64,000 bases of DNA, taken from NCBI GenBank assembly GCA_963720545.1, contig OY970399.1:2656001-2720000 (forward strand), read 5' to 3'. Of this stretch, positions 7,104-52,030 are shown in pieces. Within the stretch, counting starts at the first letter, position 1. Each line of letters opens with the position of its first letter. Both the position numbers and the translations under genes were made by a program. The stretch is from an uncultured Acidobacteriota bacterium (lineage in GTDB: Bacteria > Acidobacteriota > Vicinamibacteria > Fen-336). Under the pieces are notes generated by a model, which was not told the origin of the DNA, did no database searches, and saw only the letters and a list, made by a program, of their open reading frames with translations.

Positions 7104-7105
7104 CC

Positions 7106-29178: not shown

Positions 29179-29254
29179 TTCTGACCAATACTCAGGCCAT
29201 GAGTACGACGTCCTCATCGGGTGAGTATGGGCTCGCAACTCGACCGTGCTGGGG

Positions 29255-29278
29255 GTTACTGCGTCCGGACGCAGTAAC
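29255..29278. repeat. Perfect 24-bp palindrome GTTACTGCGTCCGGACGCAGTAAC (right copy)
   Basis: Read directly. Confidence 0.9.
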
Positions 29279-29403
29279 ACCTCCGGAGGAAGTAACAGCA
29301 GATCGGTAGACGGCAACAACGGACGACGACGCAAGCGCCCGGGGAAACCGAGGAAGGGAAATCGACGGATTGGACGGGGACGGGAGGCCAATCCGTCGAT
29401 GAG

Positions 29404-30914
29404 CTAGCGAAACAAACGCGACGCGAACTCGATGAAGTTGCGGCGCCAGACTGGCCAGGCGTGGGCGCCGGCGGTTTCGTGGTACTCGTGGCGGAGCTTG
29501 CGGTCGTCGAGCCAGGCGTGCAGGCGGCGGTTCATGCCGATGAGGTGGTCGTCGGTGCCGCAGGCGAGGTAGAGGAGGCGGCGCTCTGGCGCCGGTCGTC
29601 GGCGGCGCCGGCAGCTGCAGGTCGGCGGTGAAATCGTCGTCGAGCCCGCCGGTGCTGAAGGCGCCGACCCAGGCGAAGAGCTCGGGGTGACGAAGACCGG
29701 CGAGCAGCGATTCGAAACCGCCCATCGAGAGGCCGGCGACGGCGCGATCCGAGGCGCTGGTCGAGGTTCTATAGGCAGACTCGACCGCCGGCACTACTTC
29801 GTCGATCAGGGTCCGCAGGAAGAGCGAATAGCTGCGGCGGCGCAGCGCGAGTGTCGCGCAGCCCTGAGTCCCTCACGATGTCCATCGTGCCGTAGCCGAG
29901 CGGCATCACCACGATCATCGGCACCGCGCGTTTGCTGGCGATGAGGTTGTCGAGGATGACGTGCGCACGGCCCACCGCCGACCAGCCGCTCGCGTCGTCG
30001 CTGAACCCGTGGAGCAGGTACAGCACCGGCAAACGCCCGTTGTCCTGCGCTCCGTACCCGGGCGGCGTGTACACGAAGTACTCGCGGCTGTCGCCGGCGG
30101 CCGCCGAGCGGTACGTGTGGCGGTGCAGCGTGCCGTGGGGGACGTCCTGGACCTCCCAGTCCCGCGGCGGGGTGCCAGGCACCAGCACGGCGCTGCTCTG
30201 CGACAGCAGGTTCGGGTAGTACTCGGGGTTGCCCGGATCGGTGAGCGCCACGCCGTCAACGAGGAAGTGGTAGCCGTAGAGGTCTGGTTCGAGCGGGCCG
30301 GTCGTGACGCTCCACAGCGCACCGGCTTTCGTCATGGGTACCGCCTTGCCCTCGAGCTCGAGCTCGACTACCTGGGCGCTTGGCGCCGCCAGGCGAAACG
30401 TGACCCGGCCGTCGGGCAAGGGCTCGGGCGACGATGGTGCCGCGGCCAGTGCGGCCGTCTCGGGTCGTGACGCGGGATGCCACATGAGATGCGTGATCCG
30501 CCAGCGATTCTCCGCGCGCCTGAGACCCATGACGTAGACGTCGTCGAGACGCCGCGGCGTTCCGCCCTGCCGCGGCACGAGACGGCCGCCGTTGCGGCCG
30601 CGAATCAGCGCCGTGCTGCCGCTCACGCAGATCTCGTCGAGCCGCGGCTCGATCGCGGGTGCGAAGTCGTGGAAGAGCCCCTCGTAGCGCGGCCGGATCG
30701 CGTCGATGCCGACGACCGGCGCCTCGTTGGGCGGCAGCAGCACGGCATCGGGGGCGTAACTCGCAAGCACCGCCGCCAGATCGCGGCGGTTGTCGGCGGC
30801 GACGATGCCCTCGGCCACCGCCCGCGCTGCAGCCACCGCGGGGTCCGAGGGCGGCGCGCACGCCGAGCCCTCGGCCGCGGCAGCGAGCGCTACCGCGGCC
30901 AGGACCCCAAGCAT
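29404..30914 (-). CDS. Exported fusion: SnoaL/DUF4440 domain + CBM48-like Ig domain + esterase (alpha/beta hydrolase); frameshifted near 3' end
   Basis: Signal peptide, YAPDAVLLPPNEAPVVG, DGRVTFRLAAPSA, VPHGTLH...VYTPPGY...PVLYLLHG, AGLSMGG, GAHAW. ATG overlaps the upstream TGA. Confidence 0.8.
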
Positions 30915-33538
30915 CAGAAAGCGACGCCGGTCTTGATGTAGAAGCCGATGCGGCCTTCGCTCTTGGCGACCGACAGGGTCACCGAGTTGCGGCGGTTGGG
31001 GGAGGCGAACCACAGGCCGCCGCCGACGCCGTTGTGCCACTTGTTCGAGTCTTCGCCCTTCAGGTAGACGCGGCCGACGTCGTAGAGGCCGAGGATGCCG
31101 ATCTCGCCGGGAACGAAGATGAACGCGTTGCCGAGAGCCACGCGCAGCTCCGCGTTGCCGTAGACGACGCCGTCGCCGGCATAGCGCTGCGGGCGCAGGC
31201 CGCGGATCACGCCCGGATCGTCGCCGAGGCCGCCGATCGAGCTGACCGAACGGCCGCCGAGGAACGCCGACTCGAAGTAGGGGAAGTCGCCGAACACCTT
31301 CTTGCCGCCGCCGCGCAGCATGAGGATCACCTTGCCGGGGACCGACGGGCTCAGGTACGCGGCGAGCTCGCCGTGCAGCTCGCCGAACGAGTCCTCGATG
31401 TCGAGCGCCTCCGGGTAAGCGTGGCCGCCCGCCCAGAACTTGATGCCGCGGCTGGGCCACGCGGGCTTGTCGGTGGTGTCGATGCGCGCCTCGAAGCCGG
31501 CGCCGATCTGCGCGACGCTGTCAACAGTCAGTGCCGGCGGTATGAACCCGTTGGTTCCCGGGTTGCTGAAGGCCGGGTCGAACACCGGGTTGTCCTTCGG
31601 CTCGGTGTTGGTCCACTTGAAGACCGGCTCGAGCGACAGCTCGAGCTTGCCGATCGGGAAGACGACGCGCGGCGCCACCAGGAACTGATCGTTCTCGATC
31701 TTGCTGTTCTTGTCGGGCTCGATCTTGGGCGTCTCGTTGCCGAAGCCGTAGAAACGCAGGATGTCGTAGCCGGAGCCGAGTGCCGTGAGGCCGAGGCGCA
31801 CGTTCGAGTTCTCGAGGCGCTTGTCGAAGTCGTAGACGCCGCGGAACGCCTTCACCGTGCTCGAGAAGCTGAGGCTGAAGTGGTGGCGGGCCGAGAATGG
31901 GTCCTTGCGGAAGGCGTAACTCGTCGAGGTCAGCGAGGCCGTCAGGATGGCGCCGTAGTCGGTGCCGCCGGTGAGGCGCAGTTGCTTGATGGTGCGCCGG
32001 CCCCAGTCGCGCGCCGGGATCCAGGCGCCGCTCTTGTTGGCCGGCGGCGGGACGTAGTCGCTCTGGTCCCACTTCGTGCCCTTGCCTGTGAGCACGCGGT
32101 CTTCGCTGCCCGAGGCGTACGCCTTGGTGCGGCCGCCGCCGGTGTCGTCCACCACGTCAGCGCCGTCACCGCCCACCGCGCGCACCAGGATGCCGCCGGT
32201 GTCGCCCTTGGTGACCACCTTGTCGTTGCCGCCGAACAGCAGCAGCCGGATCTCGTCGGTCTCGTTCTTGTGGAACGTGCGCTTGAAGTACGGATCCTGG
32301 CCTTCCGCGCCCAGTGTCACGGTGACGTCGCCCGAAGGCGCGCGCTCGACGTTCGCCACCTCCGCTGCGTCGGTCGCGTAGATGTCCACCTTCTGCGAGA
32401 GGAACTTGTAGAACTTCATCGCCTGGTGGTCCACTTCGTCGCGGCGCTGGCGCAGCCCCTTGATGGTGAAGGCGCCGTTTTTCACGAAATATTCGGGCGG
32501 CATGCGGCGCGCCGCCTCCTCGATCACCGCATCGGTGATCGAGGCCTTCACCTTCGCCGCCTCTTCGACGAACGCCTCGCGCTCGAGGTCGGCGAGCAGG
32601 CGGCGATCCACGTCCCAGCCGTCGAAGGTGAGCCCGTCCATGCTCGAGAAGTCGTCGCTGAAGTTGACGAGCAGCGGCAGCCCCTGGCGGAAGATGCCGA
32701 TGACGAAGCCGTCGAACTTCACGTAGGCCTGGTCGCGGTCTTCAGGGATGGGGATGAAACGGTCGTTGCCCGCGATCTTGGCCCAACGCCACTGGTTGCG
32801 GTGGCGGTCCCAGTCGCCGATCATCATGTCCACGAGCCGCGCGCGCAGGTAGGCGCGCGAATCGACGCGCACCGCCGGGCTCTCGCGCAGCCGCTGCCAG
32901 AGCTCCTCGCCGTCGATATTTTCCTCGGCCGCGACGATGCCCTTGCTGCCGCCGAACTCCTCGATGTCGCCCAGCTGGCCGGCGAATTCCTTCTGGTACT
33001 CGCCGAGCGCCTCGTCGTCGGGCACGATCACGAGGTGCGGATCGTTGTGCACCACGTCCACCGCCTTCAGCAGCGGCGCCACCATGGTGTGGCCGGCGGG
33101 ATGCCCGGACGCCATCTGGTCGGTGACGAACTTGCGGGCAAAGGTTTCGCGCAACTCAACCGGTAGCAGGCCGCTCGGGTCCTTGAGAATCGGGCGGAAA
33201 GTGTAGAGCCGGCCGTCGCCGCCCTTGAACGCGAGGCCGCGGCTCTGGCCGTGGCCGACGATGCGCGTCGGCTTGAGGCCGCCGGCGTAAGTCTGCAGGT
33301 TCAGGACGTCGGCCTTGAAAGGCGTCAGCCACAAGTCGCGGTAGTTGCTGCCGAAGAGGAAGCGGTAGAGGCCGCCCTTCTTGTAGCGAGCACCAGCCAC
33401 CACCGTGCGCGTCTCGCCGCCGGGCGCTGGCGATGCCGCCGCTTCGGGTGCCTGCGGCGCCGCAAAGGCTGCGGTGCCGGCAGGGATGAACGTGACGAAC
33501 GTAAGGACGGCAAGGACGGCCGGAATGATGCGCTTCAT
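30914..33538 (-). CDS. Outer-membrane protein: N-terminal atypical-kinase-like domain + C-terminal Omp85/BamA-type beta-barrel
   Basis: Signal peptide. Kinase-like motifs VGHGQSRG, IGDWDRHRNQW and PIPEDRDQA. C-terminal barrel signature IRGLRPQRYAGD...NAELR...LYDVGRV...GVGGG, ending GFYIKTGVAF. Confidence 0.75.
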   Translation of the reverse strand: MKRIIPAVLAVLTFVTFIPAGTAAFAAPQAPEAAASPAPGGETRTVVAGARYKKGGLYRFLFGSNYRDLWLTPFKADVLNLQTYAGGLKPTRIVGHGQSRGLAFKGGDGRLYTFRPILKDPSGLLPVELRETFARKFVTDQMASGHPAGHTMVAPLLKAVDVVHNDPHLVIVPDDEALGEYQKEFAGQLGDIEEFGGSKGIVAAEENIDGEELWQRLRESPAVRVDSRAYLRARLVDMMIGDWDRHRNQWRWAKIAGNDRFIPIPEDRDQAYVKFDGFVIGIFRQGLPLLVNFSDDFSSMDGLTFDGWDVDRRLLADLEREAFVEEAAKVKASITDAVIEEAARRMPPEYFVKNGAFTIKGLRQRRDEVDHQAMKFYKFLSQKVDIYATDAAEVANVERAPSGDVTVTLGAEGQDPYFKRTFHKNETDEIRLLLFGGNDKVVTKGDTGGILVRAVGGDGADVVDDTGGGRTKAYASGSEDRVLTGKGTKWDQSDYVPPPANKSGAWIPARDWGRRTIKQLRLTGGTDYGAILTASLTSTSYAFRKDPFSARHHFSLSFSSTVKAFRGVYDFDKRLENSNVRLGLTALGSGYDILRFYGFGNETPKIEPDKNSKIENDQFLVAPRVVFPIGKLELSLEPVFKWTNTEPKDNPVFDPAFSNPGTNGFIPPALTVDSVAQIGAGFEARIDTTDKPAWPSRGIKFWAGGHAYPEALDIEDSFGELHGELAAYLSPSVPGKVILMLRGGGKKVFGDFPYFESAFLGGRSVSSIGGLGDDPGVIRGLRPQRYAGDGVVYGNAELRVALGNAFIFVPGEIGILGLYDVGRVYLKGEDSNKWHNGVGGGLWFASPNRRNSVTLSVAKSEGRIGFYIKTGVAF

Positions 33539-33554
33539 AGTGGGCAACCTCTAA

Positions 33555-34727
33555 TCAGTCGATTCGTTCGGCATAGCGTTCGACAGCCTGGCCATCGGCC
33601 TCGACGACGACAGCAGCCAGGCGTCCCCGCCCGTTGCGGGCCATGTCGAGGCGAACATACCCCGGTTCGCCCGAAGCGAAGTGCGTGGCCGGCAGCCGGG
33701 TGGGAATTCGTGTGTGGTGGAAGGCGCCGGCGCCGCTCACGATCAGCCACCTTGCGAGGCCGCCGCCCTCGAGCAGCTGGATGCCGTGCTCGTGGCCGGC
33801 GGCCCAGGCGAACGGCGGATGCTCGCGCAGCACCGGGTTCAGGACCGACAGCATGTGCTCGTAGACGGCTGCCGGCGCGTCCTGCGGATACCAGCCGAGG
33901 GAGCGGCCCGCCGGGATGAGGGAGCCGACGACCGGCAGCGGCAGCCACAGCCAGCCCTTCCAGGCGCGCAGGGGAAAGAGATGATCGCGCATGGTGAAGT
34001 GGCCGCCGTGGCCGCCGCCCGAAACCGGCGGATGATGCGACACCAGGATCACCGGTCGGCGATCCGCGGGAGCGAGTGCCACGCGCAGCGCCGCCTGCAC
34101 CTCGCTGTCATTTGCCGCCGCGCAGGACGATCCGGGATTGCGCGGCTTCTCGCCCTGCTCGATCCACCACTGGGTGTCCAGGGCGACAATGCGCGCGCCA
34201 GGCATGAGATCGTCCTCGACCGTGGGGCCCGGGCACGCGTCTCGCGGCCGGAATCGCACCTGCGGGCGGCCGATCTCCTCGACGTAGTCGGCCTGACGCT
34301 TGACCGTCTGCCAGCCCGGCTCGCGGTCCTCGCCCCAGTCATGGTTCCCCGGGATGAACATGCTGCGGGCGCCCGAAGCCTTGAGCGGCGCCAACTGCGC
34401 GGTGAGGCGGGCGACGGCTTCGGCCCGCGTTGCATCGCCTTCCGGGGGCAGGCCCGCATCGTAGACGTTGTCGCCCAGCACCAGCACCGCGGTTGAAGCA
34501 GGGTTGGCGCGGGCCTCGCGGGCGATCGCGGCGAAGATCGGCGCGACGTTGCGCACCGGCTCGCCGGCATCGCCGACGAAGAGCAGCGTGAACAGGCGCT
34601 CGCCCGCGCCGAGCTGCGGCACGGCGCGGGCAGCGGCCAGCTCGGCGTCGTTGCGGGAATTCTCGGAGCACGCACAGCACGCGGCCAGCGCGAAAGCCAT
34701 GGCAAAGGCGCGAAGCGACGCACGCAC
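33555..34727 (-). CDS. Calcineurin-like metallophosphoesterase (lipoprotein)
   Basis: LAAC lipobox, VGDAG, LGDNVY, PGNHDW, SHHP, AGHEH. GTG start inferred. Confidence 0.85.
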   Translation of the reverse strand: MRASLRAFAMAFALAACCACSENSRNDAELAAARAVPQLGAGERLFTLLFVGDAGEPVRNVAPIFAAIAREARANPASTAVLVLGDNVYDAGLPPEGDATRAEAVARLTAQLAPLKASGARSMFIPGNHDWGEDREPGWQTVKRQADYVEEIGRPQVRFRPRDACPGPTVEDDLMPGARIVALDTQWWIEQGEKPRNPGSSCAAANDSEVQAALRVALAPADRRPVILVSHHPPVSGGGHGGHFTMRDHLFPLRAWKGWLWLPLPVVGSLIPAGRSLGWYPQDAPAAVYEHMLSVLNPVLREHPPFAWAAGHEHGIQLLEGGGLARWLIVSGAGAFHHTRIPTRLPATHFASGEPGYVRLDMARNGRGRLAAVVVEADGQAVERYAERID

Positions 34728-34732
34728 GACCG

Positions 34733-36046
34733 CTAGGCCGCGGCCTTGCTCGTCTCCGCTGCGTTCAGCTTCAGCACCCTGAACGCTAGAAACAGCCACA
34801 GCGCCACGAGCGCGAGGTTCACCACCGCGAAACCGCGGATGCCGAGCCCGAGCTGTGTCGTGCCGACGAACACCAGCACCGCCGCCAACACGTCGCCGGA
34901 ACGCACGAAGAAGGTGTCGATCGCCTGCTTGGCCTTGTACTTTTCCTCGCGGCTCGTCGGCAGCCACAGCAACTGCTTGGCGGTGTTCATCAAGGAATAA
35001 TCGGTGCCGTTCTCGGCGATCTTCGCGAGGCGCACCAGCATCAGGCCGGCGCCCGCCGCCATGATCGAATAGCTGCCGAGCGCCACGATCGGCAGCGCCA
35101 GCAGCACGCCGCGCAGGCCCATGGCCTTGACGAGGCGCGAGGCGACGAACGCCTGCAGCAGTGCCGCGAGCACCGAAGTCCAGAACAGGTAGTCGCCGTA
35201 GAAGCCGCCGATGAAGGCCTTCTTGTCGGCAAGGCTCGCCGCTGCCTCGGTAACCTTGGTGCTCAGCAGGAACTCTCCGGCGGTGTTCACCAGGTTCGTC
35301 ATGATGAGCAGCACGCCTATCGCCAGCAGGTAGGAGCTCTTGAAGACGAGGGCGAACCCGTCGCCCTTCGCGAGCACCGGCTCGGCGGCCGGGGTGCGCT
35401 GCCGCGCCTTCGCCAGGTGGTTCATGAGGTAGTAGAGGCCGAGCGAGACCAGCAGGATCGCGCCGCTCAGCCGCAGCATGAAGTGCAGCGGCTGGCCCAT
35501 CTTGAACAGCTGGCCGGCGATCTTCGCGCCGATCGGGCTGCCGAGCGTGGCGCCGATGGCGATGACGGGGAACAGCCGCTCGCCCATTTCCTTCGTATAG
35601 ATGTCGTTCGCGTAGCTCCAGAACTGCGCGATGATCGAGAGGTTGAAGATCCCGACCCAGATATAGAACACGACGCCGACGAAGCGCACGTCGAGCCTGA
35701 TCGCCACCTCGAACAGGATGATGCAGGCGACGAAGAACAGGTTGAGGGCGACGATGAGGCTGGAGCGCTTCAGGCGCGCGGCAAGCCAGCTGTAGATGGG
35801 GATGAAGGCGATTAGGGCGAGCGCCTGTCCGGCAGAGGCGTAGGTCTTCACCGCGGCGCCGCCGCCGGTGAGGATGAGCGGCTCGCGCACGGTCTTGATG
35901 ATGTAGTAGCCGAGCAGGATGAGGAAGACGTTCGCGAACATCAGCAGCACGCCGACGCCCTCGCCCCCGCGGACGTCGCTGAAGAGGCGCAGGAAACGGT
36001 CGAGGGGGGTGAGCGGGGCCGAGGAGCTTTGATCCTGGTTCGCCAT
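34733..36046 (-). CDS. Npt1/Npt2 (TLC/NTT) family nucleotide exchange transporter
   Basis: About 12 hydrophobic segments, YYIIKTVREPLIL, FYIWVGIFNL...QFWSYANDIY...RLFP, DYSL, KYKAKQAIDTFFVRSGD. Confidence 0.88.
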   Translation of the reverse strand: MANQDQSSSAPLTPLDRFLRLFSDVRGGEGVGVLLMFANVFLILLGYYIIKTVREPLILTGGGAAVKTYASAGQALALIAFIPIYSWLAARLKRSSLIVALNLFFVACIILFEVAIRLDVRFVGVVFYIWVGIFNLSIIAQFWSYANDIYTKEMGERLFPVIAIGATLGSPIGAKIAGQLFKMGQPLHFMLRLSGAILLVSLGLYYLMNHLAKARQRTPAAEPVLAKGDGFALVFKSSYLLAIGVLLIMTNLVNTAGEFLLSTKVTEAAASLADKKAFIGGFYGDYLFWTSVLAALLQAFVASRLVKAMGLRGVLLALPIVALGSYSIMAAGAGLMLVRLAKIAENGTDYSLMNTAKQLLWLPTSREEKYKAKQAIDTFFVRSGDVLAAVLVFVGTTQLGLGIRGFAVVNLALVALWLFLAFRVLKLNAAETSKAAA

Positions 36047-36161: not shown

Positions 36162-37256
36162 ATGAAGGCTTTTCGGGCGCACCTCTTTGTACCCCTTCTT
36201 TTCGTTGCCACCGGCGTCGCTTGTGGCGCCTGTGCCCACCGGGAGCTGAAGCCCGGCGAGGCCTTGACCGAGGAGGCGCGCCTCGAGGCCATCCGGCGGG
36301 CGCACGTCTGGTCGCCTGTGGTCGTCCGCAACGTCAACTTCAGGGTCGGGCCAAGCGACAAGAACAGGCCTGCGCCTGGCCAGTGGATCACCTGCGATTA
36401 CAAGCCCACCGAATCCGGCGGCAAGTCGCCCAAGTTCACCTGCGTCGGCAGCCGCGGCCAGGAGTACAAGGTCAAGTACGGCGACGACAACGCCGAGGTG
36501 ATCGGTGAGGTGCTCGCCTCACGGCTCTTGTGGGGGCTCGGCTTCGGCGCCGACCGCATGTATCCCGTGCGGGTGCGCTGCCGCGGGTGTTCCGCGGACC
36601 CGGCGGAGCACAAGGAACGCGCCGCCGGCACGGCGGTCTTCGACCCGGCGGCGATCGAGTGGCGACTGCCGGGGCGGACGCTCGAGACGCGGCCCGATTC
36701 CGGGTGGAAATGGGACGAGCTCGACGAGATCGGCCCGGGCGCGCCGCCCGGCGAGCGCGCGCACCGCGAAGGCCTCAAGCTGCTGGCGGCGTTCATCCAG
36801 CACACCGACAGCAAGTCCGACAACCAGCGCCTCAGTTGTCCGCCCGGCGCCTCTGTCGGGCGCACCGGCTGCCGCGCGCCTTTGATGATGATCCACGACC
36901 TCGGCCTGACGTTCGGCCGCAGCTCGCTGCTGAACAAGAACGAAAACAGCGTCAGGCTTGCCAGGTGGGCGACGCTGCCGGTGTGGAAGAACCCGGCGAC
37001 CTGCGAGGCCCAGCTCGGCGGATCGCTCACCGGGACCCTGAGCAACCCCGTGATCCGCGAGGAAGGCCGCGCGTTCCTGGCCGGCCTGCTGGCACAGCTG
37101 AGCGACGCGCAGCTTCGCGACCTGTTCGAAATCTCCGGCGTGAAGCATCGACCGGCCGACAGCAAGGATGAGACGGCACCCGCCTCGGTCGAACAGTGGG
37201 TGGCCGCGTTCAAGGACAAGCGGGCCCAGGTGGTGGACCACCGCTGCCCGAACTAG
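36162..37256 (+). CDS. Exported (lipo)protein with atypical protein-kinase-like fold
   Basis: Signal ending VACGAC. GGKSPKF, YKVKY, GEVLASRLLWGLGF, catalytic-loop-like HTDSKSDN, DFG-like HDLG. Confidence 0.65.
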   Translation: MKAFRAHLFVPLLFVATGVACGACAHRELKPGEALTEEARLEAIRRAHVWSPVVVRNVNFRVGPSDKNRPAPGQWITCDYKPTESGGKSPKFTCVGSRGQEYKVKYGDDNAEVIGEVLASRLLWGLGFGADRMYPVRVRCRGCSADPAEHKERAAGTAVFDPAAIEWRLPGRTLETRPDSGWKWDELDEIGPGAPPGERAHREGLKLLAAFIQHTDSKSDNQRLSCPPGASVGRTGCRAPLMMIHDLGLTFGRSSLLNKNENSVRLARWATLPVWKNPATCEAQLGGSLTGTLSNPVIREEGRAFLAGLLAQLSDAQLRDLFEISGVKHRPADSKDETAPASVEQWVAAFKDKRAQVVDHRCPN

Positions 37257-38384
37257 GACGGCGTCGGCGTCGGTGAGGGCTTCGGCGTCGGCTTCGCCGC
37301 CGGCGGCTTTGCAGTCGATTTCGGTGAGGCCGTCGGAGTCGGCTTCGGGGTCGGCTTCGGCGGTCGGCGGCCCTGGTCCCTCGGGCGTCGAGCGGCCCGG
37401 CGTCCCGACCTTGGGCACCGCCACCTCGACCGGCTTCGCTTCCGGCGACGCGGGCTTGGCCTCGGCGGGCGCGCCCGGCCGATGGATCTCGCCCGAGTCG
37501 ATCGTCTGGCCGGCGCGGTTGATCGTCTGGTAGTAGAGGTCGTTGCCGGCGATTTCCACGAGCATGAAGTGGTAGTCGGCGTCGTACTCCTTCGCCGTGA
37601 TGCCGGAGGCGCGGTTGCCGCTGCGCAGCGAGCCGCCGGCGCCCGAGACGAAGTAAGTGATGTCGCCCTTCTGCGGCTTGGTGCGCTCGTAGAAATGGTC
37701 GTGGCCTGAGAACACCACGCTGACGCTGTTCTTGACGAACAGCGGCTCGAGCACCGCGCGCGACTCGAGCGAGGAGCCGTGCAGCGCGCCCGACGAGTAG
37801 AGCGGATGATGGAAGTAGGCGACCTTCCATTCCGAGTCCGACTCGGCGAGCGTCTTGTCCACCCAGGTGAGCTGCTCCTTGTCGAGGTAGTTGCTGTCTA
37901 GCGCGTAGAAGCGCACGCTGCCCTCGCCCTTCCCTGGCCCGCTCGGTCCGCGGAACGTGTAAAAGCGCTGGCCGTCCATGTTGAACGGCTTGTAGAAGCG
38001 CTGGTTCGGGTTGTCGTGGTTGCCGAGGCTCGCGTAGAACTTCACGCCCTTGTCGAGGAGAGCCTTGTACGGGTCCTCGAACTTGAGCTTCATGTCGGCG
38101 GGACTGTCGGCGCCGTAGATGTTGTCGCCCAGCATGATGACGAACTCAAACGGGAACACCTCGTGGAAGGCGGCCATCTGCGCGCCCACCTCGTACTGCT
38201 CGCGGCGGCCGCGGCCGCTGTCGCCGATCACGCCGAAGCGCACCGAGCCGTCCTTGCGCGGCAGCTTCAGCGCGGTCTTGGCGCTGTCGTTCGACGCCTG
38301 CGAGACCTCGCGCGGCGCCTGCGAGGCAGGGCACTGGCCGAGGCCGAGCGCCAGCAGCAGGGTTAGGAACGCGGCGCCTCTCAA
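37253..38384 (-). CDS. Exported metallophosphoesterase (purple-acid-phosphatase-like) with Pro/Lys/Thr-rich tail; frameshift near 37370
   Basis: IGDSG, LGDNIY, LGNHD, FHHP, SGHDHFYER. The tail PKPTPKPTPTASPK...PTPTPS ends at TAG 37253-37255 in the alternative frame. Confidence 0.85.
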
Positions 38385-38388
38385 GATC

Positions 38389-39036
38389 TCACTTCGCCGG
38401 CAGCGGGGGAGTGCCGGCCGGCAGGAAGTCGACGATGAGGCTCGTGACCGAATCGAACAGGATCAGGTCGCGCCCGACGAAGCGGTACTGCAGCGGCGCC
38501 GGCAGCACCGGCAGCGTGGCGAGGACGCTTGCCGGCACGGTCGAGAGCGCTGCGCCCGATGGATACTCCGTATTGACGCGTGGCTTCACCGGCACCGACT
38601 CCCCGTCTTTCTGCGGGTTGCCTTCGACCACGGCGCTGCGGGCCGCACCGGTGTCCGGGCCCTGCAGCTCCTTCGCCAGCAGCCGCCTGAACACCGGCTG
38701 CACGGCTGGCGTGAAGATGTCGCCCTGCTTTGCCTGCTGGCGGGCTGCGACGATTGCGGCGGCGAGCGACGTCGTCTTCGCGTCGGCGCCCGCCGCGCTG
38801 TCGGCCCTGGGCGTGCCGAGCTTCGCAGCCTCGCGCGCATGGAGCGCAGCGTACTGCGCGACCGCGTCGCGAAACGCCTTCAGCGCCGCCTGTTCGGCCG
38901 GGCTCATCGGCACCTGCGGGCCCGCCTCGGCCTTTTTCACCTTGTTCGCCACCTTGGCGGCGGTGTCGGGCGGCGGCTGTTGCGCGAGACTACCGGCGAG
39001 AACGGCGAGGCCTAGACAACCTGCGAAGAACCCCAT
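38389..39036 (-). CDS. Exported hypothetical protein
   Basis: Signal peptide. Structured-looking C-terminus VNTEYP...TVPASVLATLPVLPAPLQYRFVGRDLILFD...LIVDFLP. Tightly packed in the operon. Confidence 0.7.
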   Translation of the reverse strand: MGFFAGCLGLAVLAGSLAQQPPPDTAAKVANKVKKAEAGPQVPMSPAEQAALKAFRDAVAQYAALHAREAAKLGTPRADSAAGADAKTTSLAAAIVAARQQAKQGDIFTPAVQPVFRRLLAKELQGPDTGAARSAVVEGNPQKDGESVPVKPRVNTEYPSGAALSTVPASVLATLPVLPAPLQYRFVGRDLILFDSVTSLIVDFLPAGTPPLPAK

Positions 39037-39049
39037 GGCGCTGCTCCAG

Positions 39050-39961
39050 TCATTTGCCGCTTGCCGGCTTTGCTTTCACCTTACGCCGCGGCTTGCCCTT
39101 TTTGCCAGCGACCGCCACCCCGTGCATGGCGCCGAGCGCCGCCGCCCAGTCCTCCTCGAAAATCGCCGCCATCTTCGCCACCACCTTGCGGTCCTTGACG
39201 ATGACGCCGACCTCGCGACGGTGGTCGAGCTCCAGCTTGCGCAGGCCCTGGCTGCCCATGAACGCCTGCTTGCCGTCGCGGATCACGGCGCGCAGGTGCA
39301 GCCGCACGCCGGGAATCTTGAGTGCCGTGAGTCCGCCGCCCGCCTTGCCCAGGATGCGCACGCTGACGCCGGCAGCGATGCGCTCCTTGATGATGCGGAT
39401 CATGCGCGTGTCGGTGAGCTTGGGGACGTGATAGATGAGCAGCTCCTTGCGCGCGCCCTTCAGGTACTCGGCCAGCCGCTCGCGCGAGTTGACCGGGCTC
39501 ACGAGGAACGACTTGGAGCCGGCCGCGTAGTCCTGGCGCAGCGAATCGGCCTCGAACAGCTTGAGCGCCTCTGCCACCAGCTCGCGCTTCTTGGAAACGA
39601 CCGCGAAGCTGCGGCTCTTCAGGTCGAGCGCCGTGTAGTTGAAGGCCAGGATGTACACGCTCTTGCGGTCCACCACCATCACCTTGCTGTGGTAGCGGAC
39701 CAGGTCGGTGTCGGTGCGGCGCACGCCGGCGCCGGTCTTGAGCAGCGCCTGCTCGAGGCGGCGCAGCTTCTTCTCGCCGCCGCGGTTGGTGTGCGCGATC
39801 AGGGTGCGCACCGCGACACCGCGGCCGGCGGCAACGGCGAGCAACTCGGCGATGTCGCGGCGGTCGAGGCGGAAGATGCCGACGTCGAGACTGGTCTTCG
39901 CCTTGCGGATCGCGCTCAGGATTGGCTCGATGCCGTCGTCGGGCTGGATGATGAGCTTCAT
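39050..39961 (-). CDS. Phospholipase D-superfamily protein (two PLD domains)
   Basis: YHSKVMVVD (HKD) and variant LHLRAVIRD...GSQ. Basic C-terminal tail. ATG overlaps the upstream TGA. Confidence 0.8.
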   Translation of the reverse strand: MKLIIQPDDGIEPILSAIRKAKTSLDVGIFRLDRRDIAELLAVAAGRGVAVRTLIAHTNRGGEKKLRRLEQALLKTGAGVRRTDTDLVRYHSKVMVVDRKSVYILAFNYTALDLKSRSFAVVSKKRELVAEALKLFEADSLRQDYAAGSKSFLVSPVNSRERLAEYLKGARKELLIYHVPKLTDTRMIRIIKERIAAGVSVRILGKAGGGLTALKIPGVRLHLRAVIRDGKQAFMGSQGLRKLELDHRREVGVIVKDRKVVAKMAAIFEEDWAAALGAMHGVAVAGKKGKPRRKVKAKPASGK

Positions 39962-40671
39962 TTGCCTGGCTTCTTTTCCGCCCAGGCCACTTCCACGGCT
40001 TCGCCCTGGCGCAGCGCCACAATCATCTCGGAGAGCTGGTCCGTGCCCTTGCCCTGCGGCACTTCGGCGGAGTACGTCATCTCCTTTTCGGTGGAGGCGC
40101 GCAACTCGAACTTCACGCCGTGCTTCTTCAGCAGCGACTCGAGCGCCGGCTTGAGCGCCGCAGGGTCGCGGGCTGCGATCTTCAGGTCGAAGGAAGCCGT
40201 CGGCCACGGCGCACGCCACTCGAGGATGCGCAGCACGCCGATGATGAAGAGGGTGCCGGCCGTGGCGAGATAGATGAGCCCGACGCCGGAGGCGAGGCCG
40301 ACGGCGAGGCAGGCGAGCAGCACGCTGGCGTCCTTCGGGTCGTCGATCTTGGCGCGGTAACGCACCAGCCCGGCGACGCCGGCGATCGCGAAGGCGCGCG
40401 CCAGGCTGGCGCCGACGATCAGCATCACCAGCGAGCCGACGATCGCCAGCATGATCTGCGTCTGGATGACGGTCGCGCCGCGCGGCGGACCGCCGGCCGG
40501 CCGAGGCCGGAAGGCGAGCACCGCCCCCAGCGCTCCCGCCACCAGCAGGCACAGGAGCGAGTGGCCGAGGTCGGCAAACGTGAAATCGGCGATCTGGTTG
40601 ATCGCCGTCAGCGAGCGCGGCGTCTCCTCGCCCGCGGGCGCAACCGCCAGCAGCACGAGCAAAGAATCCAT
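39958..40671 (-). CDS. DUF4956 / MgtC-like membrane protein
   Basis: Transmembrane segments with ARAFAIAGVAGLVRYRAKIDDPKDASVLLACLAVGLASGVG, and a C-terminal ACT-like region. Confidence 0.78.
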   Translation of the reverse strand: MDSLLVLLAVAPAGEETPRSLTAINQIADFTFADLGHSLLCLLVAGALGAVLAFRPRPAGGPPRGATVIQTQIMLAIVGSLVMLIVGASLARAFAIAGVAGLVRYRAKIDDPKDASVLLACLAVGLASGVGLIYLATAGTLFIIGVLRILEWRAPWPTASFDLKIAARDPAALKPALESLLKKHGVKFELRASTEKEMTYSAEVPQGKGTDQLSEMIVALRQGEAVEVAWAEKKPGK

Positions 40672-40749: not shown

Positions 40750-41760
40750 TCAGCCGGCTTTCGACATGCCGGCTATGGATACCGCGCCGCTCGCGCGCTC
40801 CACCCCGGCGCGCATCTTGGAGATGCGGATGACGTCGGTCGCGATCACCTGCAGGTAGTCGCTCGCCATCTCGAAATTGTCCTCGAACACGTCGAGCAAC
40901 GTCTCCGCCACGGTGTGCAGCGCCGTCACCTCGGTGCGCGCCGTGGCGTCGTAGAAGCGCGGCGTCTCGGAGATGCTCTCGATCGAGCCGAGCGGGCCGC
41001 CGGGGCCGAGGGTGAAGTCGATCGCATCCTCGTCGGAGCGGCAGCGCACAGCGCCGTCGATGATGACGAAGATGCCGCCCGAGGCGTCGCCCTTCTTCCA
41101 GATCTCGGTGCCGGCATCGAAGCGCACCTCGTTCATGCCGCGCGACAGCTCGGCAAGCGCGTTGATGCTGCTGCGCTTGAAGATCGGCGCCTTGCGCAGG
41201 AACGCGATGCGCTCGACGAAGTCCATCTCCTTGCGCGGCGCCGGCATGTCGAAGCTGCTGAGGTCGGTGAACACCCAGGGGTTCTCGATGAGCAGCGCGA
41301 GCAGTCGCTTCGAGCTGCCCTTGATCATCCCGTAGGTGAGGTTGAAACGGTCCTCGAGCACCTCCATGAGCGCCTCGGCGTCGATGTCGAGGCAGTGCAC
41401 GTCGGTGGCGGCGATCGCCTCGAGTCCCTGCGGGTCCTTGGCCATGTATTGCAGCCAGCCGACGGCGTCGCCAGGCCCAAGACTGGCGAGCTGCAGGTCC
41501 TCGGTGCGGATCTCGACCTGGCCTTCGATGATGAGGTGGATGGTGTCCACCATCTCGCCCATGTGCCGCATGACGGCGCCCTTGGGGAAGTAGCGCTCGC
41601 TGCACAGCTCGGCGATCACCGCGAGGTCGGTGGAGCGCGCACCGCCGGTGGCGTCGAACATCCGCAGGTACAGCACCCGCTCCAGGAGCGACGTGGAACG
41701 CACGCCGTCGACGGTTTCCCTGCGGCGAGAGCGCAGCCTCGGCTTCGACTTACCCGGCAC
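40750..41760 (-). CDS. Tandem cyclic-nucleotide-binding-domain protein
   Basis: Two repeats: LERVLYLRMF...FPKG...LIIEGQVEI and VERIAFLRKAPIF...FDAG...VIIDGAV. GTG start with AAAGGA RBS, overlapping the upstream stop. Confidence 0.82.
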   Translation of the reverse strand: MPGKSKPRLRSRRRETVDGVRSTSLLERVLYLRMFDATGGARSTDLAVIAELCSERYFPKGAVMRHMGEMVDTIHLIIEGQVEIRTEDLQLASLGPGDAVGWLQYMAKDPQGLEAIAATDVHCLDIDAEALMEVLEDRFNLTYGMIKGSSKRLLALLIENPWVFTDLSSFDMPAPRKEMDFVERIAFLRKAPIFKRSSINALAELSRGMNEVRFDAGTEIWKKGDASGGIFVIIDGAVRCRSDEDAIDFTLGPGGPLGSIESISETPRFYDATARTEVTALHTVAETLLDVFEDNFEMASDYLQVIATDVIRISKMRAGVERASGAVSIAGMSKAG

Positions 41761-44503
41761 CGGCGGTCCTTTCGGCACCGGGGATGCTGCCGGCGGCCGC
41801 ATCCAGCGCGCGCAGCGCCCGCTCGAACACCTGGCGGACGAAGAAACCGGTCTTGTGCCGGTCGAAGGCGCGCAGGCGTTCGGCGAACTGTACGAGGCCC
41901 AGCTCGCCGATATGGCCGGCGGCCAGCGAGCGGATGGTTTCGCCGGGCTGCTCCAGCAGCTCGCCGAGCAGCTGCTCGTAAGTCGGCGGTGTCCGCGTCA
42001 CCGGCCCCTGCACCGCCAGCCGCTCCGCATCCGGCACGTCGTCGATGAGGCCGATGACCAGGTCGCGCAGCGGTGGCTGCAGCACGTTCGCGGTCAGCTC
42101 GCGCGAGGTGGCGCGGATCTTGGCGCTGGTGCTGCCGAGGCCTCGGTGGATGGGCTTGAAGTTCTCGCGCGTGAAGCGCAGCGACAGCAGGCGGAACAGG
42201 CGCTCGATGGCGTGCGTCTCCTTGTCGCGCAGCAGCGCCACCAGCAGCTCGTGGCCGGGAGTGAGGCGCGCCGGCACTTCGGCGGCGCCGTTCTCGAGGA
42301 TCGCGCGCCATTCGATGAGGCGGTAGGTGGCGGCGATGGTGCGCTCGATGGCCTGGTCGAGCACCGAGTCGTCGAAGTTGATGCCGGGGTTCTCGGTGGC
42401 GATACGGCCGAGGCCGCGGATGATCTTGAAGCGCACCAGGCCGTCGTTCTCGTCGAGCAGCCGCTCCTGCAGCACCTGCAGGGCCGCCTCCGGCTCGAAC
42501 AGCACCAGCGAACGCGGCACGTGGCGGCGGATCTCGTGCGGCAGGTGCTCGTCCTTCAGCGACTCGGCCAGGAAATGCAGCGCGCGCTCGCCCTGCGCCA
42601 CCAGCGCCGCGCGCGCCGCCGGCCGCACCTCGTGGCTCACCAGGAACGACATCAGCGGCGGCAGGAAGGCGTCGTCGCGCACCGCGCCCATGGCGCGCGC
42701 CACCTCGATCTGCACCTCTTCCTCGGAGGAGTCTCCGAGGAGCGTCAACGCCGGGACGAAATCGGGCGAGGGCTGGCGCGTGATGGCGCGCGCCAGCACC
42801 AGCCGGGTGCGCGCCGAGGCGGCGCAGGCGATGCCTTCGATCGCCTCGCGGTCCTCGTCGGTGCCGAGGCCGCGCGCCACCATCACCACCAGCGCCGTGG
42901 CCCGCACCAGCGGATCGACGTCGCCCGTGGAGGCGCGCAGCGAGGCTTCGTCGGGCGCCACCGCGTTGCGGGCGCGCAGCGCGGCGGCGCGCACCTCCGG
43001 GTCGGGGTGGCCGATGAGGCGGTCGGCGACCGGATAAAAGTCGTCGCGCTTCGACAGTTCGAAGAGCTCCAGGGTGCGCAGCACGATCGCGGACGAAGGA
43101 TGGAAGAGGAGCAGCGCCGGCACCAGCCGCACCCGGCCCTCTTCCGCCAGCAGGTCGAGGGCAGCGAGCACCTCGCTGTCCTCGGCGCTGTTGAGCGAGG
43201 AGAAGAGCGACTCCAGCGAGCCCAGGTCGAGCTCCGGCATGTCCACCGAGCTGTGCATCGAACCCTCGCGCAGCGCGTCGCGGAACAAGTTGAGGTAGTG
43301 CTTCTTGATGTCGGCGGCGAACGCGATCCAGACGATGCACAAGCCGCCGGCCGCCGAGGCCAGCACGTAGTCGCCGCGCCGCAGGCCGATGTCGCTGAGG
43401 ATCGCGAGCGAGGCGATCGCCTGGCCGGCGCGCTGCGTGACGCCGTCGATGAACGGCTTGACCCGCGAGCGCAGCGCGTCGGGGATGGGGACGAACAGCA
43501 GCTCCATCGCGGTCTTGTTGAGCGAGAAGCGGAAGGCGCCGTCGGCGCCCTTCATGATCAGCGCCGCCGCCAGGCCACCGCCGAACGCGACCCCGGCGGA
43601 CCCGAGCGCCAGCAGGCTCGGCAGCACCCACAGCGCGCGGTGCAACCCGAGCAGGCGCATGAGGATGCCGGCCAGCAGGAACTGGGTGAGGAGCCCCGCG
43701 ATGTTGAGCCCCATATAAAAGGTGGCGAAGAACTCGGCGAGGTTCTCCTTCGGGATGGCGCGCGCCACCTCGCTCTTGAAGACGTAGTCGGCGACCGTGA
43801 TGGCGACCGTCGAAACCAGCACCAGCACCGTAAGGTTCTTGAGGTAGGCGTTGCCCTGGATGAGGCGCAGCGGCTCGCGCAGAGCGGCCAGGCCGCGCCC
43901 GCCGGGAGCGTCGATGGTGGTGCGCTGCAGGTAGAGGCCCGGGCCGAGCGCCGTCAGCACCATCAACAGCGCGGAAGTCGGCAAGAGCGTGTCGGCGGGG
44001 AACGAGCCGGCGACGATGCGGGCAATGCCCGAGCCGGCGACGGCACCCATGACGCTGCCGGTCGCGACCACGCGGAACACGCGCTTCGCCTGCGTCACGG
44101 TGAAGCGGTCGGACATGATCACCCAGAACTCGACCGCGGCGAGCGTGCCGAAGACGCCGGTCCAGATGTAGAGGCCGTAGACGCGGAAGTGGCCCTGGTA
44201 GCCGACGCCGGCGAGATAGAACGCCAGGGTGACGGCGGCGGCGAACAGCAGCAGGAAGCTGAGGCTGAACTTCACCGCGATCCGGCCGAGGCGCTTCAGC
44301 GGCGAGTCGGAGATGAGCATCGCGATGCCGGCGATCGCGAGGTACATGAACGGTAGCTGCGAAGCCGGCAGCCGCGACAGGAACAATGCGTCGCGCGCGG
44401 TCTCGAGGATCGTGTGGCTTGCGAGGATGCCGAACAGGCCGAAAAAGGACAAAAGCGCGGCGCTGCGCTCGTCGGCACGGATGTCGCCCAGAAAACGCGC
44501 CAT
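41750..44503 (-). CDS. Npt/TLC-family nucleotide transporter fused to HEAT repeats
   Basis: N-terminal MFS-like domain (ILETARDALFL, EFWVIMSDRF...AKRVF, FSLNKTAMELLFVPI...VKPFID), followed by HEAT-like repeats (HPDPEVRAAALRA, DVDPLVRATAL). Confidence 0.85.
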   Translation of the reverse strand: MARFLGDIRADERSAALLSFFGLFGILASHTILETARDALFLSRLPASQLPFMYLAIAGIAMLISDSPLKRLGRIAVKFSLSFLLLFAAAVTLAFYLAGVGYQGHFRVYGLYIWTGVFGTLAAVEFWVIMSDRFTVTQAKRVFRVVATGSVMGAVAGSGIARIVAGSFPADTLLPTSALLMVLTALGPGLYLQRTTIDAPGGRGLAALREPLRLIQGNAYLKNLTVLVLVSTVAITVADYVFKSEVARAIPKENLAEFFATFYMGLNIAGLLTQFLLAGILMRLLGLHRALWVLPSLLALGSAGVAFGGGLAAALIMKGADGAFRFSLNKTAMELLFVPIPDALRSRVKPFIDGVTQRAGQAIASLAILSDIGLRRGDYVLASAAGGLCIVWIAFAADIKKHYLNLFRDALREGSMHSSVDMPELDLGSLESLFSSLNSAEDSEVLAALDLLAEEGRVRLVPALLLFHPSSAIVLRTLELFELSKRDDFYPVADRLIGHPDPEVRAAALRARNAVAPDEASLRASTGDVDPLVRATALVVMVARGLGTDEDREAIEGIACAASARTRLVLARAITRQPSPDFVPALTLLGDSSEEEVQIEVARAMGAVRDDAFLPPLMSFLVSHEVRPAARAALVAQGERALHFLAESLKDEHLPHEIRRHVPRSLVLFEPEAALQVLQERLLDENDGLVRFKIIRGLGRIATENPGINFDDSVLDQAIERTIAATYRLIEWRAILENGAAEVPARLTPGHELLVALLRDKETHAIERLFRLLSLRFTRENFKPIHRGLGSTSAKIRATSRELTANVLQPPLRDLVIGLIDDVPDAERLAVQGPVTRTPPTYEQLLGELLEQPGETIRSLAAGHIGELGLVQFAERLRAFDRHKTGFFVRQVFERALRALDAAAGSIPGAERTAGAG

Positions 44504-44611: not shown

Positions 44612-46069
44612 GTGAAGCTCATCCGCCTCACCGCTTCTTCGCCGGAATCTTGTTGTTCGCCGCAGTTGTGCTGCCTGCGCCGGCGCGGCGCAAGGCATGT
44701 ACTACAGGAGGTAGAGAAGGATGGGCGGATCTACGTGTTCGACATGACGGCCAGCCGAGGCGAGCCTTCCAGAAAACCGGCGGGGCCGAGCTTGGTGTCG
44801 CGATCACCCGCCCGGGCGCTCGGTCCGGACGGCGAGACGGTGGTCTTCGACAGCGAGCAGGCGATCAACTACTACAACTTCAAGCACGGCATCGCCGAAG
44901 TGGTTGAAAAGCCGAAAACGCCCAAGGTCGACATCGTCTACCGCGACGGCCGCACCACGGTCGACTTCGACAACGGCCAGATCCAGTTCCAGAACCGCCT
45001 GCAACTGCGCTATACGCACCAGTTGCCGCCGTCGGAGACACAGCTTCCGGGCACCTCGAACAAGGGTGACTCGAAGGGCTCGTTCCGCATCCGCCGCTAC
45101 GAGCCGCAGTTCCAGGGCTGGATCTACAAGAAGTGGATCGGCTACAAGCTCGAGTTCGCCTTCCAGGACCTGCAGAACGACGCGGTCGCCGGCGGCGCCA
45201 TCAACGACGCCTACTTCACCTACGACTTCGGCAAGGGCACGCGCAGCTTCCGCGCGCAGTTCGGCCAGTTCAAGGTGCCGTTCGGGCGCCAGGAACTGAC
45301 CTCGTCCTTCAACCAGCAGTTCGTCGACCGCTCGATCATCGCCGGCGAGTATGAGCGCGGCCGCGACCTGGGCCTGCAGCTCGACGGTCTCCTCGGCGGC
45401 GGCAAGCTCGAGTGGCGCGTCGGCCTCTTCAACGGCAACCAGCGCAACAAGACCCTGAACGACAACAACAAGTTCCAATACGACGCGCGGGTCACCTGGC
45501 TGCCCTGGGGCGAGCCCGGCTACTCCGAGAGCGACTTCGAATCCACCGACAAGCCGCTGTTCGCACTGGCCGGCCAGTGGGAGCTGAACGACTTCGCGAA
45601 CACCGTGGCGCCGGTGGTGCCGACGGGCGCTCCCGCGGGCACGCCGGCGGTGATTCCCTCGGTCACGTCCTGCCCGTGCGGCAGCGGCGCGCTGAAGCGG
45701 ACCACTTACGGCGTCGATGCCGTCCTCAAGTACAAGCGGCTGTTCCTGATGGGCGCCTTCTACAACCGCAAGATCGACCCCATTGTCAGCACCATCGAGA
45801 ACTTCAAGTCGAACGGCTACCACACACAGGCGGGCTACCTGCTCGACTCGGCGCGTCACTGGGAAGTGGCCGTGCGCTACGCGAGCTTCGACCCGACCGA
45901 CAAGACCTCGAGCAACGACCGCACCGAACTGGGCTTTGGCCTCAACTACTTCTACAACAAGCACAACGCCAAGATTCAGTCCGACTACCGGATCCTCGAG
46001 AACAAGTCGACGAAGCTGAAGGACAATTCGTGAAGTGCGCGCTTCAAACTCTAGTCTGGATCTGCGTAG
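44612..46069 (+). CDS. Phosphate-selective porin (OprO/OprP family); frameshifts at both ends, boundaries approximate
   Basis: RLQLRY, FRIRR, GQFKVPFGRQELTSS...FVDRS, GRDLG, GLNYF. Lies directly upstream of pstS. Confidence 0.82.
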
Positions 46070-46077
46070 GACGCCGT

Positions 46078-46112
46078 CGGAGTTAACACGGATTTAACAG
46101 CACGCATTAACC
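46078..46112. promoter_or_regulatory. Candidate pho box upstream of pstS
   Basis: CGGAGTTAACACGGATTTAAC...ATTAACC, with TTAAC at 46083, 46094 and 46107. The first 10 nt are identical to the 44522 site. Confidence 0.65.
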
Positions 46113-46168
46113 GGCCCGTTCCTTCGGGCCGGTACCTTTTGATCAAAGACATGGAAAGAGGCAAGCAC

Positions 46169-47132
46169 ATGAAGAGCACCGCAGCGGCGCTCCTGGCATT
46201 CGCATCCCTGGCGGGCCTGGCGCTCGCCCAGGCGGTCAAGGTGGAAGACAGCGATCACCGGGTACGCGAAGACCTCGGGCGTCTCCGGCAACATCAACAG
46301 CGTCGGCTCCGACACGATGAACAACCTGATGACGCTGTGGGCCGAGTCGTTCCTCAAGATGTACCCGAACGTCAAGATCCAGGTGGAGGGCAAGGGCTCG
46401 TCGACGGCGCCGCCGGCGCTCATCACCGGCACCGCGCAGTTCGGCCCGATGTCGCGCGCGATGCGCGCCACCGAGATCGACCAGTTCGAGAAGAAGTACG
46501 GTTACAAGCCGACGCAGATCCGCGCCTGCTACGACGCGCTCGCGGTCTACGTGAACAAGGACAACCCGCTCGAGAAGCTCGACCTCGCGCAGGTGGACGC
46601 GGTGTTCTCGAAGAGCCACCGCCGCGGCGGCAAGGCGGTCGCGACCTGGGGCCAGCTGGGGCTCACCGGCGACTGGGCCAACCGCCCCATCAGCCTCTAC
46701 GGCCGCAACTCGGCGTCCGGCACCTACGGCTTCTTCAAGGAGCACGTGCTGCAGAACGGCGACTACAAGGACCAGGTGAAGGAGCAGCCGGGTTCGGCAT
46801 CGGTCGTCCAGGGCGTCACCGAGGACCGCTTCGGCATGGGCTACAGCGGCATCGGCTACAAGACCTCGGGCGTCAAGGCCGTGCCGCTCGCGGAAAAGGC
46901 CGGCGGCTACTACTCGTCGGGCAGCTACGAGGACGTGAAGACCGACAAGTACCCGCTGCACCGCTTCCTCTACATCTACGTCAACCGCGCGCCCGGCAAG
47001 CCGCTCGATCCGGTGGTGCGCGAGTACCTGAAGCTGGTGCTCTCGAAGGAAGGCCAGGAGGTCGTCGTGAAGGACGGCTACCTGCCCCTGCCCGCCGAGA
47101 TCGTGACGCAGGAACTGGCGAAGATCGAGTAG
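46169..47132 (+). CDS. pstS: Phosphate ABC transporter substrate-binding protein; frameshift near 46260
   Basis: Signal peptide, SVGSDTM, EGKGSSTAPPAL, GPMSR, GRNSASGTYGFF, YPLHRFLYIY. Confidence 0.93.
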
Positions 47133-47213
47133 GCGCCGAGACCGAAATAGCAACCAAGACCGTGGCCAGCACTGGCGACGACGCCGCGAACCTTTGCAAG
47201 ATCCGCCGCGCGC

Positions 47214-51103: not shown

Positions 51104-51127
51104 CGGCGTTTTTTGGTGAGATGTCGG

Positions 51128-51997
<870 letters not shown>

Positions 51998-52030
51998 TAT
52001 CACAATAGCGCGCCAGGGGAAGAAGAGAAG

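Follow-up and report, generated by a model that had tools for sequence, protein, structure and literature searches.

The window analysed here, a stretch of 64,000 nucleotides from an uncultured Acidobacteriota bacterium, carries a gene whose product is very probably an exported enzyme with a kinase fold (Table 1). What is new is an unnamed family of such proteins, together with a tentative genomic case for polyphosphate as their phosphoryl donor. The source of phosphoryl groups for kinases outside the bacterial cytoplasm is an open question, and the periplasm is thought to lack ATP; if the reading developed below is true, the locus would offer a small answer in three parts: a soluble kinase domain, an enzyme of 303 aa and a membrane protein. 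A literature search, outside which most subscription papers lay, turned up no paper describing the kinase family, DUF4956 in company with a PPK1-type enzyme, or an exported kinase fed by polyphosphate.

Table 1. Features of the kinase locus, in window coordinates
Feature	Position	Strand	Basis or remark
NTT/TLC-like carrier, divergent from the kinase	34733..36046	-	Pfam PF03219; TIGR00769 below cut-off
Kinase-fold protein, predicted exported, Cys-rich, atypical, 364 aa	36162..37256	+	ORF, predicted fold, conservation
Signal-like N-terminus to candidate lipoprotein Cys (C21 or C24)	36162..36233	+	Hydrophobicity rule
N-lobe motifs: GGKSPKF (K91), beta-3 Lys K105, Glu pair E112/E116	36417..36509	+	
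C-lobe motifs: HTDSKSDN (D216, K218, N221) and DLG (D246)	36801..36905	+	
Calcineurin-like metallophosphoesterase, signal-like N-terminus	37253..38384	-	Pfam PF00149; probable assembly frameshift
Small protein, signal-like N-terminus; candidate substrate or partner	38389..39036	-	No Pfam match
303-aa two-domain PLD-fold 'mini-PPK1-like' enzyme, no signal-like N-terminus	39050..39961	-	PPK1 C1-C2 active-site residues
DUF4956 membrane protein	39958..40671	-	PF16316, 29.8-30.9 bits against a cut-off of 30.6 (borderline)

The kinase-fold protein and its family

The reading frame is uninterrupted (GC3 0.89), and the motifs and many Cys residues that an earlier note on this DNA had read in it were all located where it had claimed: in kinase order, GGKSPKF at residue 86, KVK at 103, E112 and E116, HTDSKSDN at 214 and DLG at 246, with ten Cys residues at 21, 24, 78, 94, 140, 143, 226, 237, 281 and 362. 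Canonical Ser/Thr protein kinases are marked by the motifs GxGxxG, HRDLKxxN and DFG. The description of the present motifs as near-canonical is right for their order but not for their style, which is that of the CtkA/PI4KII/Fam20/CotH group; the loop has a single conserved Gly, and the Pkinase profile of Pfam gave no match. Pfam as a whole returned one sub-threshold, spurious match and no family, NCBIfam returned no match, and nothing was found among PDB sequences with either the protein or its profile. The Pfam Fam20C profile was unmatched at E 0.1 (a lead from the Atlas reached only 0.85), and the CotH profile PF08757 was also unmatched, though true CotH neighbours at other loci do match it.

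The AlphaFold2 model (pLDDT 90.1, pTM 0.88) predicts a two-lobed kinase fold. A wide structural search with the model, using VIA-align, gave Z-scores of 12.5 for CtkA (rmsd 4.0, 220 aligned), 11.6 for PI4KII-alpha, 10.8 for Fam20C, 10.7 for CotH, 9.8 for MavQ, 9.6 for actin-fragmin kinase and 9.5 for HipA; every match that Foldseek listed was a kinase-fold protein. The beta-3 Lys, alpha-C Glu, catalytic Asp and metal-binding Asp are present in order, their roles being assigned from that order and from secondary structure. On the predicted structure, placement in the atypical CtkA/PI4KII/Fam20/CotH group of the protein-kinase-like superfamily holds, and the earlier suggestion, a periplasmic kinase outside the named families but similar to CotH and Fam20C, is supported as regards export and kinase fold by the predicted fold, by conservation and by signal-like N-termini. 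The proteins closest in structure (CtkA, PI4KII-alpha, CotH, MavQ, actin-fragmin kinase and HipA) have no match to it at the sequence level. Members of this atypical group act on proteins, lipids and sugars, and the fold therefore carries no information on the substrate.

The active site of Fam20C, in the accessible text of PMC4421793, comprises K285/E311, D458 and D478, with an extra Glu, E306. The present protein resembles it in fold (Z 10.4-10.8) and in having the Lys/Glu pair, the catalytic Asp and the metal Asp, and its eight Cys residues recall four disulfides. A second conserved Glu, E112, stands ahead of the alpha-C Glu and may be the counterpart of E306, although the Glu spacing, compared by sequence, is 4 here and 5 in Fam20C (PMC4421793, accessible text). 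The proteins differ in that structural identity to Fam20C and Fam20B is only 10-13%, and in that the donor of Fam20C is ATP.

A word-indexed search recovered 1,478 relatives among 8,000 scored candidates, with no Pfam domains on the 120 relatives listed, and searching with a full profile yielded 1,711 clusters (50% identity), of which 494 reached E 1e-30 or better. The named loci are nearly all from Acidobacteriota, mostly Vicinamibacteria, with one record from Bdellovibrionia and one unclassified. Among 301 sampled genomes of the phylum the family was matched in 28, strongly in 19, and the source genome holds a second copy (35% identity). Because the family is large and occurs in soil-type Acidobacteriota, it could matter for soil phosphorus cycling.

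Residue conservation was counted in the 120 of 150 cluster representatives that cover the domain, the 30 partial ones being dropped. K91 is kept in 119, K105 in 115, E112 in 109, E116 in 108, D216 in 119, K218 in 108, D246 in all 120 and G248 in 119, and each of the eight Cys residues of the mature domain in 117-120; conservation in the family is far above chance. The K/E/D/N/D set on which the earlier reading depended has thus survived at its K, E, D and D, kept in 108-120 of the 120, but not at the N: 72 of them have Asn at residue 221 and 47 have Gln, and among 84 locus sequences Gln stands there in 57. In four Terriglobia loci (L070, L072, L074 and L079; 4/84 locus sequences) a tandem paralogue of the kinase, at about 11,200-12,600 or, in L070, at 5,888-7,240, has Asn in place of the catalytic Asp and could act as a pseudokinase partner; in 11 loci of this clade the kinase is flanked by a recurring unannotated gene of 314 aa. 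Kinase-PAP2 fusions, one adjacent PAP2 gene and one subtilase-kinase fusion were also seen (loci L043, L046, L064 and L056; representatives P0128, P0135, P0138, P0264 and P0185).

Export of the kinase to the periplasm is likely, judging from the N-termini. By a hydrophobicity rule, used instead of SignalP, 92 of the 98 representatives whose N-terminus is complete begin with a hydrophobic stretch; in a control PLD family the rule picked out 3 of 45. A lipoprotein anchor, as read earlier in the window protein, did not prove to be a family trait, a lipobox-like motif being found in only about a third of relatives (30 of the 92 signal-bearing diverse relatives; 37 of 85 locus proteins). The 121 closest sequences all have C24, and the -3 position is atypical in the window kinase.

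Gene neighbourhoods and the DUF4956 slot

As first described, the kinase gene is the only one identifiable on the plus strand between 30914 and 44503, and it stands head-to-head with the NTT-like gene across 115 bp, a gap in which no sigma-70 promoter or terminator was found. The arrangement with the phosphatase, said to be tail-to-tail with the stop codons overlapping in a CTAG, was found in part: the CTAG is there, at 37253-37256, but the phosphatase frame as assembled misses this stop and continues to 36519, while a neighbouring frame encodes a Pro/Thr-rich tail that stops at the CTAG. In two public runs, each represented by one low-depth contig, 1 or 13 bases are absent at 37350-37361, and a frameshift there through an assembly error is therefore probable, which suggests that the true gene does overlap the kinase stop. 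The stop of the DUF4956 gene overlaps the start of the mini-PPK1-like gene. None of the 15 locus proteins scanned matched the VTC-domain or CotH families. The small exported neighbour bears an automatic Atlas label, 'chorismate mutase family', which has no Pfam support and was not adopted.

Further along, an NTT-HEAT gene followed by a double cNMP-binding gene occupies 40750-44503 on the minus strand, an arrangement as in the accessible text of PMC5381601, and on the plus strand 44612-53445 and 58882-62630 hold a phosphate-selective porin, pstS/C/A/B, phoU, a response regulator, a Ppx-like gene and a full PPK1, several of these names coming from a reading of the translations. The kinase thus sits inside a large phosphate/polyphosphate region. 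Apparent mid-gene frame changes in a sulfatase-like (24075-26255) and an esterase-like gene (29192-31460) suggest further indel errors in the assembly.

At 79 loci of the kinase family the recurring neighbours were a phosphoesterase (23 loci), the small exported protein (19-20), the mini-PPK1-like enzyme (17) and DUF4956 (12), in an order and orientation that are shuffled among loci. A DUF4956 or polymerase-type gene was present in only 18 of the 79 (13 of the 53 loci of at least 15 kb). On a tree of 92 kinases, built by a quick method with long-branch warnings and with short unlinked loci excluded, this neighbourhood link needs 10 changes, at least 3 of them forced by well-supported branches, and the clade of the window kinase is linked in 14 of its 19 rows. 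Genomes with a strong kinase match contained DUF4956 in 12 of 19 cases, against 40 of 301 genomes overall, and a search for DUF4956 gave no match in the other seven. Seen from the mini enzyme, 11 of 12 loci of close orthologues in the 301 genomes held a member of the kinase family or of a Cys-free sister family, mostly adjacent, and DUF4956 lay beside the enzyme in only 6 of 12. In an independent metagenome set, many of whose loci are truncated or redundant, a kinase lay beside the mini enzyme in 8 of 25 loci of at least 4 kb and DUF4956 in 0 of 25; one locus of 12.5 kb had unrelated neighbours.

Neighbours within 5 kb were surveyed for 47 of the 48 DUF4956 matches, the window's own being left out. 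A polymerase-type gene was present at 39 of the 47 loci, comprising VTC at 18 (17 by HMM and one more by Pfam), full PPK1 at 9 and the mini enzyme at 12, and never two types together; random placement over 48 loci, the window's included, produced no overlap-free case in 20,000 draws. A kinase-like gene was present at 36 of the 47 (CotH 17, the kinase family or its sister 18, PI4K-like 1), and both kinds of gene at 30. The HMMs behind these counts were partly built from the loci counted, and VTC, PPK1 and CotH were confirmed by Pfam on the examples scanned. The accessible texts of 10.1101/768473 and 10.1101/2024.04.20.589940 describe CotH, a polyphosphate polymerase (VTC) and DUF4956 as uncharacterised accessory genes of pel operons. 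The same three slots recur here, for a polymerase-type enzyme, DUF4956 and a secreted atypical kinase, with the difference that the kinase is of the unnamed Cys-rich family and the polymerase slot is filled by a PPK1-type enzyme, mini or full length. At three loci (L173, L185 and L186) the kinase family, full PPK1 and DUF4956 lie on one strand within about 5 kb. PPK1 is a proven polymerase family, and its full-length form in the VTC slot therefore strengthens the case that DUF4956 handles polyphosphate. The nine full-PPK1 loci may represent one event because all come from one family; two PPK1 genes are present in 7 of the 8 genomes having a DUF4956-linked PPK1, and all eight genomes belong to that family.

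The Cys-free sister family consists of kinase-like proteins, predicted to be exported, whose genes often abut DUF4956 (L139, L141, L142, L145, L146, L148-L150, L168, L169, L175, L178, L180, L181, L187, L189 and L192); the two members scanned had no family match. Beside the sister-kinase/DUF4956 pairs of L168, L189 and L192, dual-specificity phosphatase-like genes replace the metallophosphoesterase. The DUF4956 protein of L157 has an additional anti-sigma-antagonist domain.

The mini-PPK1-like enzyme

The model of the mini enzyme (pLDDT 90.9) is predicted to have a fold that ties phospholipase D (Z 29.5) with E. coli PPK1 (Z 28.7), and because of this tie the fold does not decide its identity. 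NCBIfam places nuclease models above PPK1 for it, and the one match to PF13089 in the source genome is the full PPK1. Among the PDB matches listed, an unbroken match over the full length of its profile is confined to PPK1 chains; against the window's own PPK1, hhalign gave 96% over 270 columns. All 38 members compared share R31, H91, K93, N108, P156, H222, R248 and E250; the equivalents of these residues in E. coli PPK1 are, in the same order, R375, H435, K437, N459, P507, H592, R621 and E623. Of 28 close members, 20 have Arg at the position of R60 (R405) and 26 at that of R224 (R594). H435 is the autophosphorylation site of E. coli PPK1 (PMC4400040, accessible text), and R375, R405, N459 and H592 line the PPK1 pocket in a docking study (PMC7301697, accessible text). 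The arginine at R31 is absent from the PLD, Nuc and Zucchini alignments. The sequence therefore leans towards PPK1.

Like PPK1 (1xdo, 9uuh), the mini enzyme has the C1-C2 fold, by its model, and the His/Arg/Asn/Glu active-site set; it differs in having 303 residues against about 700, without an N or H domain and without a match to PP_kinase_N or the middle domain. All 28 close members have Ser at the equivalent of D470, and R564 is not retained; because of these changes and the absent domains polymerase activity is not assured. The predicted complex of the mini enzyme with DUF4956 scored 0.00, which we counted neither for nor against. A distant clade of mini enzymes (L154, L157, L188 and L190) keeps the D470 equivalent and lies beside DUF4956, CotH and porin-like genes, with dTMP-kinase-like genes near it in L154.

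Donor and substrate of the kinase

The reading that we prefer, held as possible rather than probable, takes the protein for a kinase of the periplasm that draws on polyphosphate made at DUF4956 and exported, its action being opposed by the exported phosphoesterase. The mini-PPK1-like enzyme would make polyphosphate in the cytoplasm and the DUF4956 protein would pass it outward. The kinase, with four probable disulfides, a K105/E116 ion pair, D216 as base and D246 and possibly E112 as metal ligands, would take phosphoryl groups from the polymer rather than from ATP and transfer them to a target in the envelope. This target would most likely be a protein, the small exported neighbour being one example, and the metallophosphoesterase would reverse this phosphorylation or recycle phosphate. 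For this module we infer export, catalysis, polyphosphate synthesis, transport, donor and substrate alike. The kinase sequence has no feature favouring polyphosphate over ATP, and the polyphosphate of the CotH-VTC-DUF4956 set may remain in the cytoplasm, according to the accessible text of 10.1101/2024.04.20.589940. A broader version, in which extracytoplasmic phosphorylation on polyphosphate is modular, with DUF4956 as conduit, VTC, PPK1 or the mini enzyme as feed, and CotH, the Cys-rich family or its sister using the polymer as donor, seems to us doubtful.

The polyphosphate genes might instead be mere neighbours in a phosphate-economy island, around a periplasmic kinase that uses ATP supplied by NTT-family carriers, an explanation that the earlier note implied and that we regard as fairly unlikely. 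It would account for the NTT gene diverging from the kinase gene and the NTT-HEAT/cNMP pair nearby, and the named fold relatives are, by their structure titles, ATP-binding kinases. Moreover, an NTT homologue is present in six of the seven strong-match genomes that lack a DUF4956 match, two loci of the genome sample (L196 and L197) have an NTT-like gene at a distance of about 2 kb and about 10 kb from a family member, and other kinase-like genes occur at 6 of 20 close-NTT loci (two of a kinase/Omp85 type, three of another family and one PI4K-like). However, co-occurrence with NTT genes, which the earlier note had put forward, fared poorly in both directions: an NTT-like gene was present at 2 of the 79 kinase loci and the kinase family at none of the best 20 loci of close NTT orthologues, and the NTT was rejected as the main conserved partner. 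Co-occurrence at the level of genomes says little because NTT homologues are common (129/301). The window NTT is co-oriented with a phosphoesterase and a different, kinase-like/Omp85 gene, and so seems to lead a unit of its own, NTT - phosphoesterase - kinase/Omp85. The free-living NTT, NTT-HEAT and cNBD sets of PMC5381601 resemble the window, where an NTT gene occurs as well as an NTT-HEAT gene with a cNMP-binding gene next to it, but the accessible part of that paper mentions no kinase link, and the link of NTT to the present family is rare.

An unlikely explanation, in our judgement, is a kinase for lipids, glycans or small molecules that acts at the inner membrane's outer face alongside PAP2 or metallo-phosphatases, in which case the PLD-fold neighbour would be a lipid phosphotransferase and not a polymerase. 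The best fold matches of the kinase include PI4KII and MavQ, the top one of the mini enzyme is a phospholipase D, PAP2 is fused to the kinase at 3 of the 79 loci and adjacent at one more (and fused to it in 4 of 16 long representatives scanned), and Fam20B shows that this fold can act on sugars (PMC5865150, accessible text). Yet the mini enzyme has PPK1-type arginines missing from the PLD and nuclease alignments listed and fills the VTC/PPK1 slot beside DUF4956, and a lipid or glycan substrate would leave the donor unexplained while being compatible with polyphosphate as well. Very unlikely, finally, is a catalytically weak or regulatory protein, a kinase-like sensor or scaffold that binds nucleotide or polyphosphate in phosphate stress, or an enzyme running in reverse. 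The Gln at position 221 in 47 of 120 relatives, the tandem paralogues lacking the catalytic Asp and the adjoining pst, phoU, ppx and ppk1 genes would suit such a role, but D216, D246, K105, K91 and both Glu residues are nearly invariant, which is hard to explain otherwise than by catalysis.

Other kinase-like genes were seen beside NTT genes. In the window, the minus-strand gene at 30914-33547 encodes a protein that bears a signal, kinase-like motifs in the N-terminal part and, at the C-terminus, an Omp85 barrel; it is preceded by a second phosphoesterase gene (33555-34736, minus strand), and both are co-oriented with the NTT gene. The profile of the kinase family showed no similarity to its N-terminal domain. 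A paralogue, 63% identical, lies at about 1,199,100-1,201,800 of G000:C1, and genes of this type adjoin NTT at L199 and L212 too. A third unnamed kinase-like family, of 520-570 aa and with no Pfam match, is encoded directly upstream of NTT at L209 (5378-6943), L210 (5163-6887) and L211 (2379-4052).
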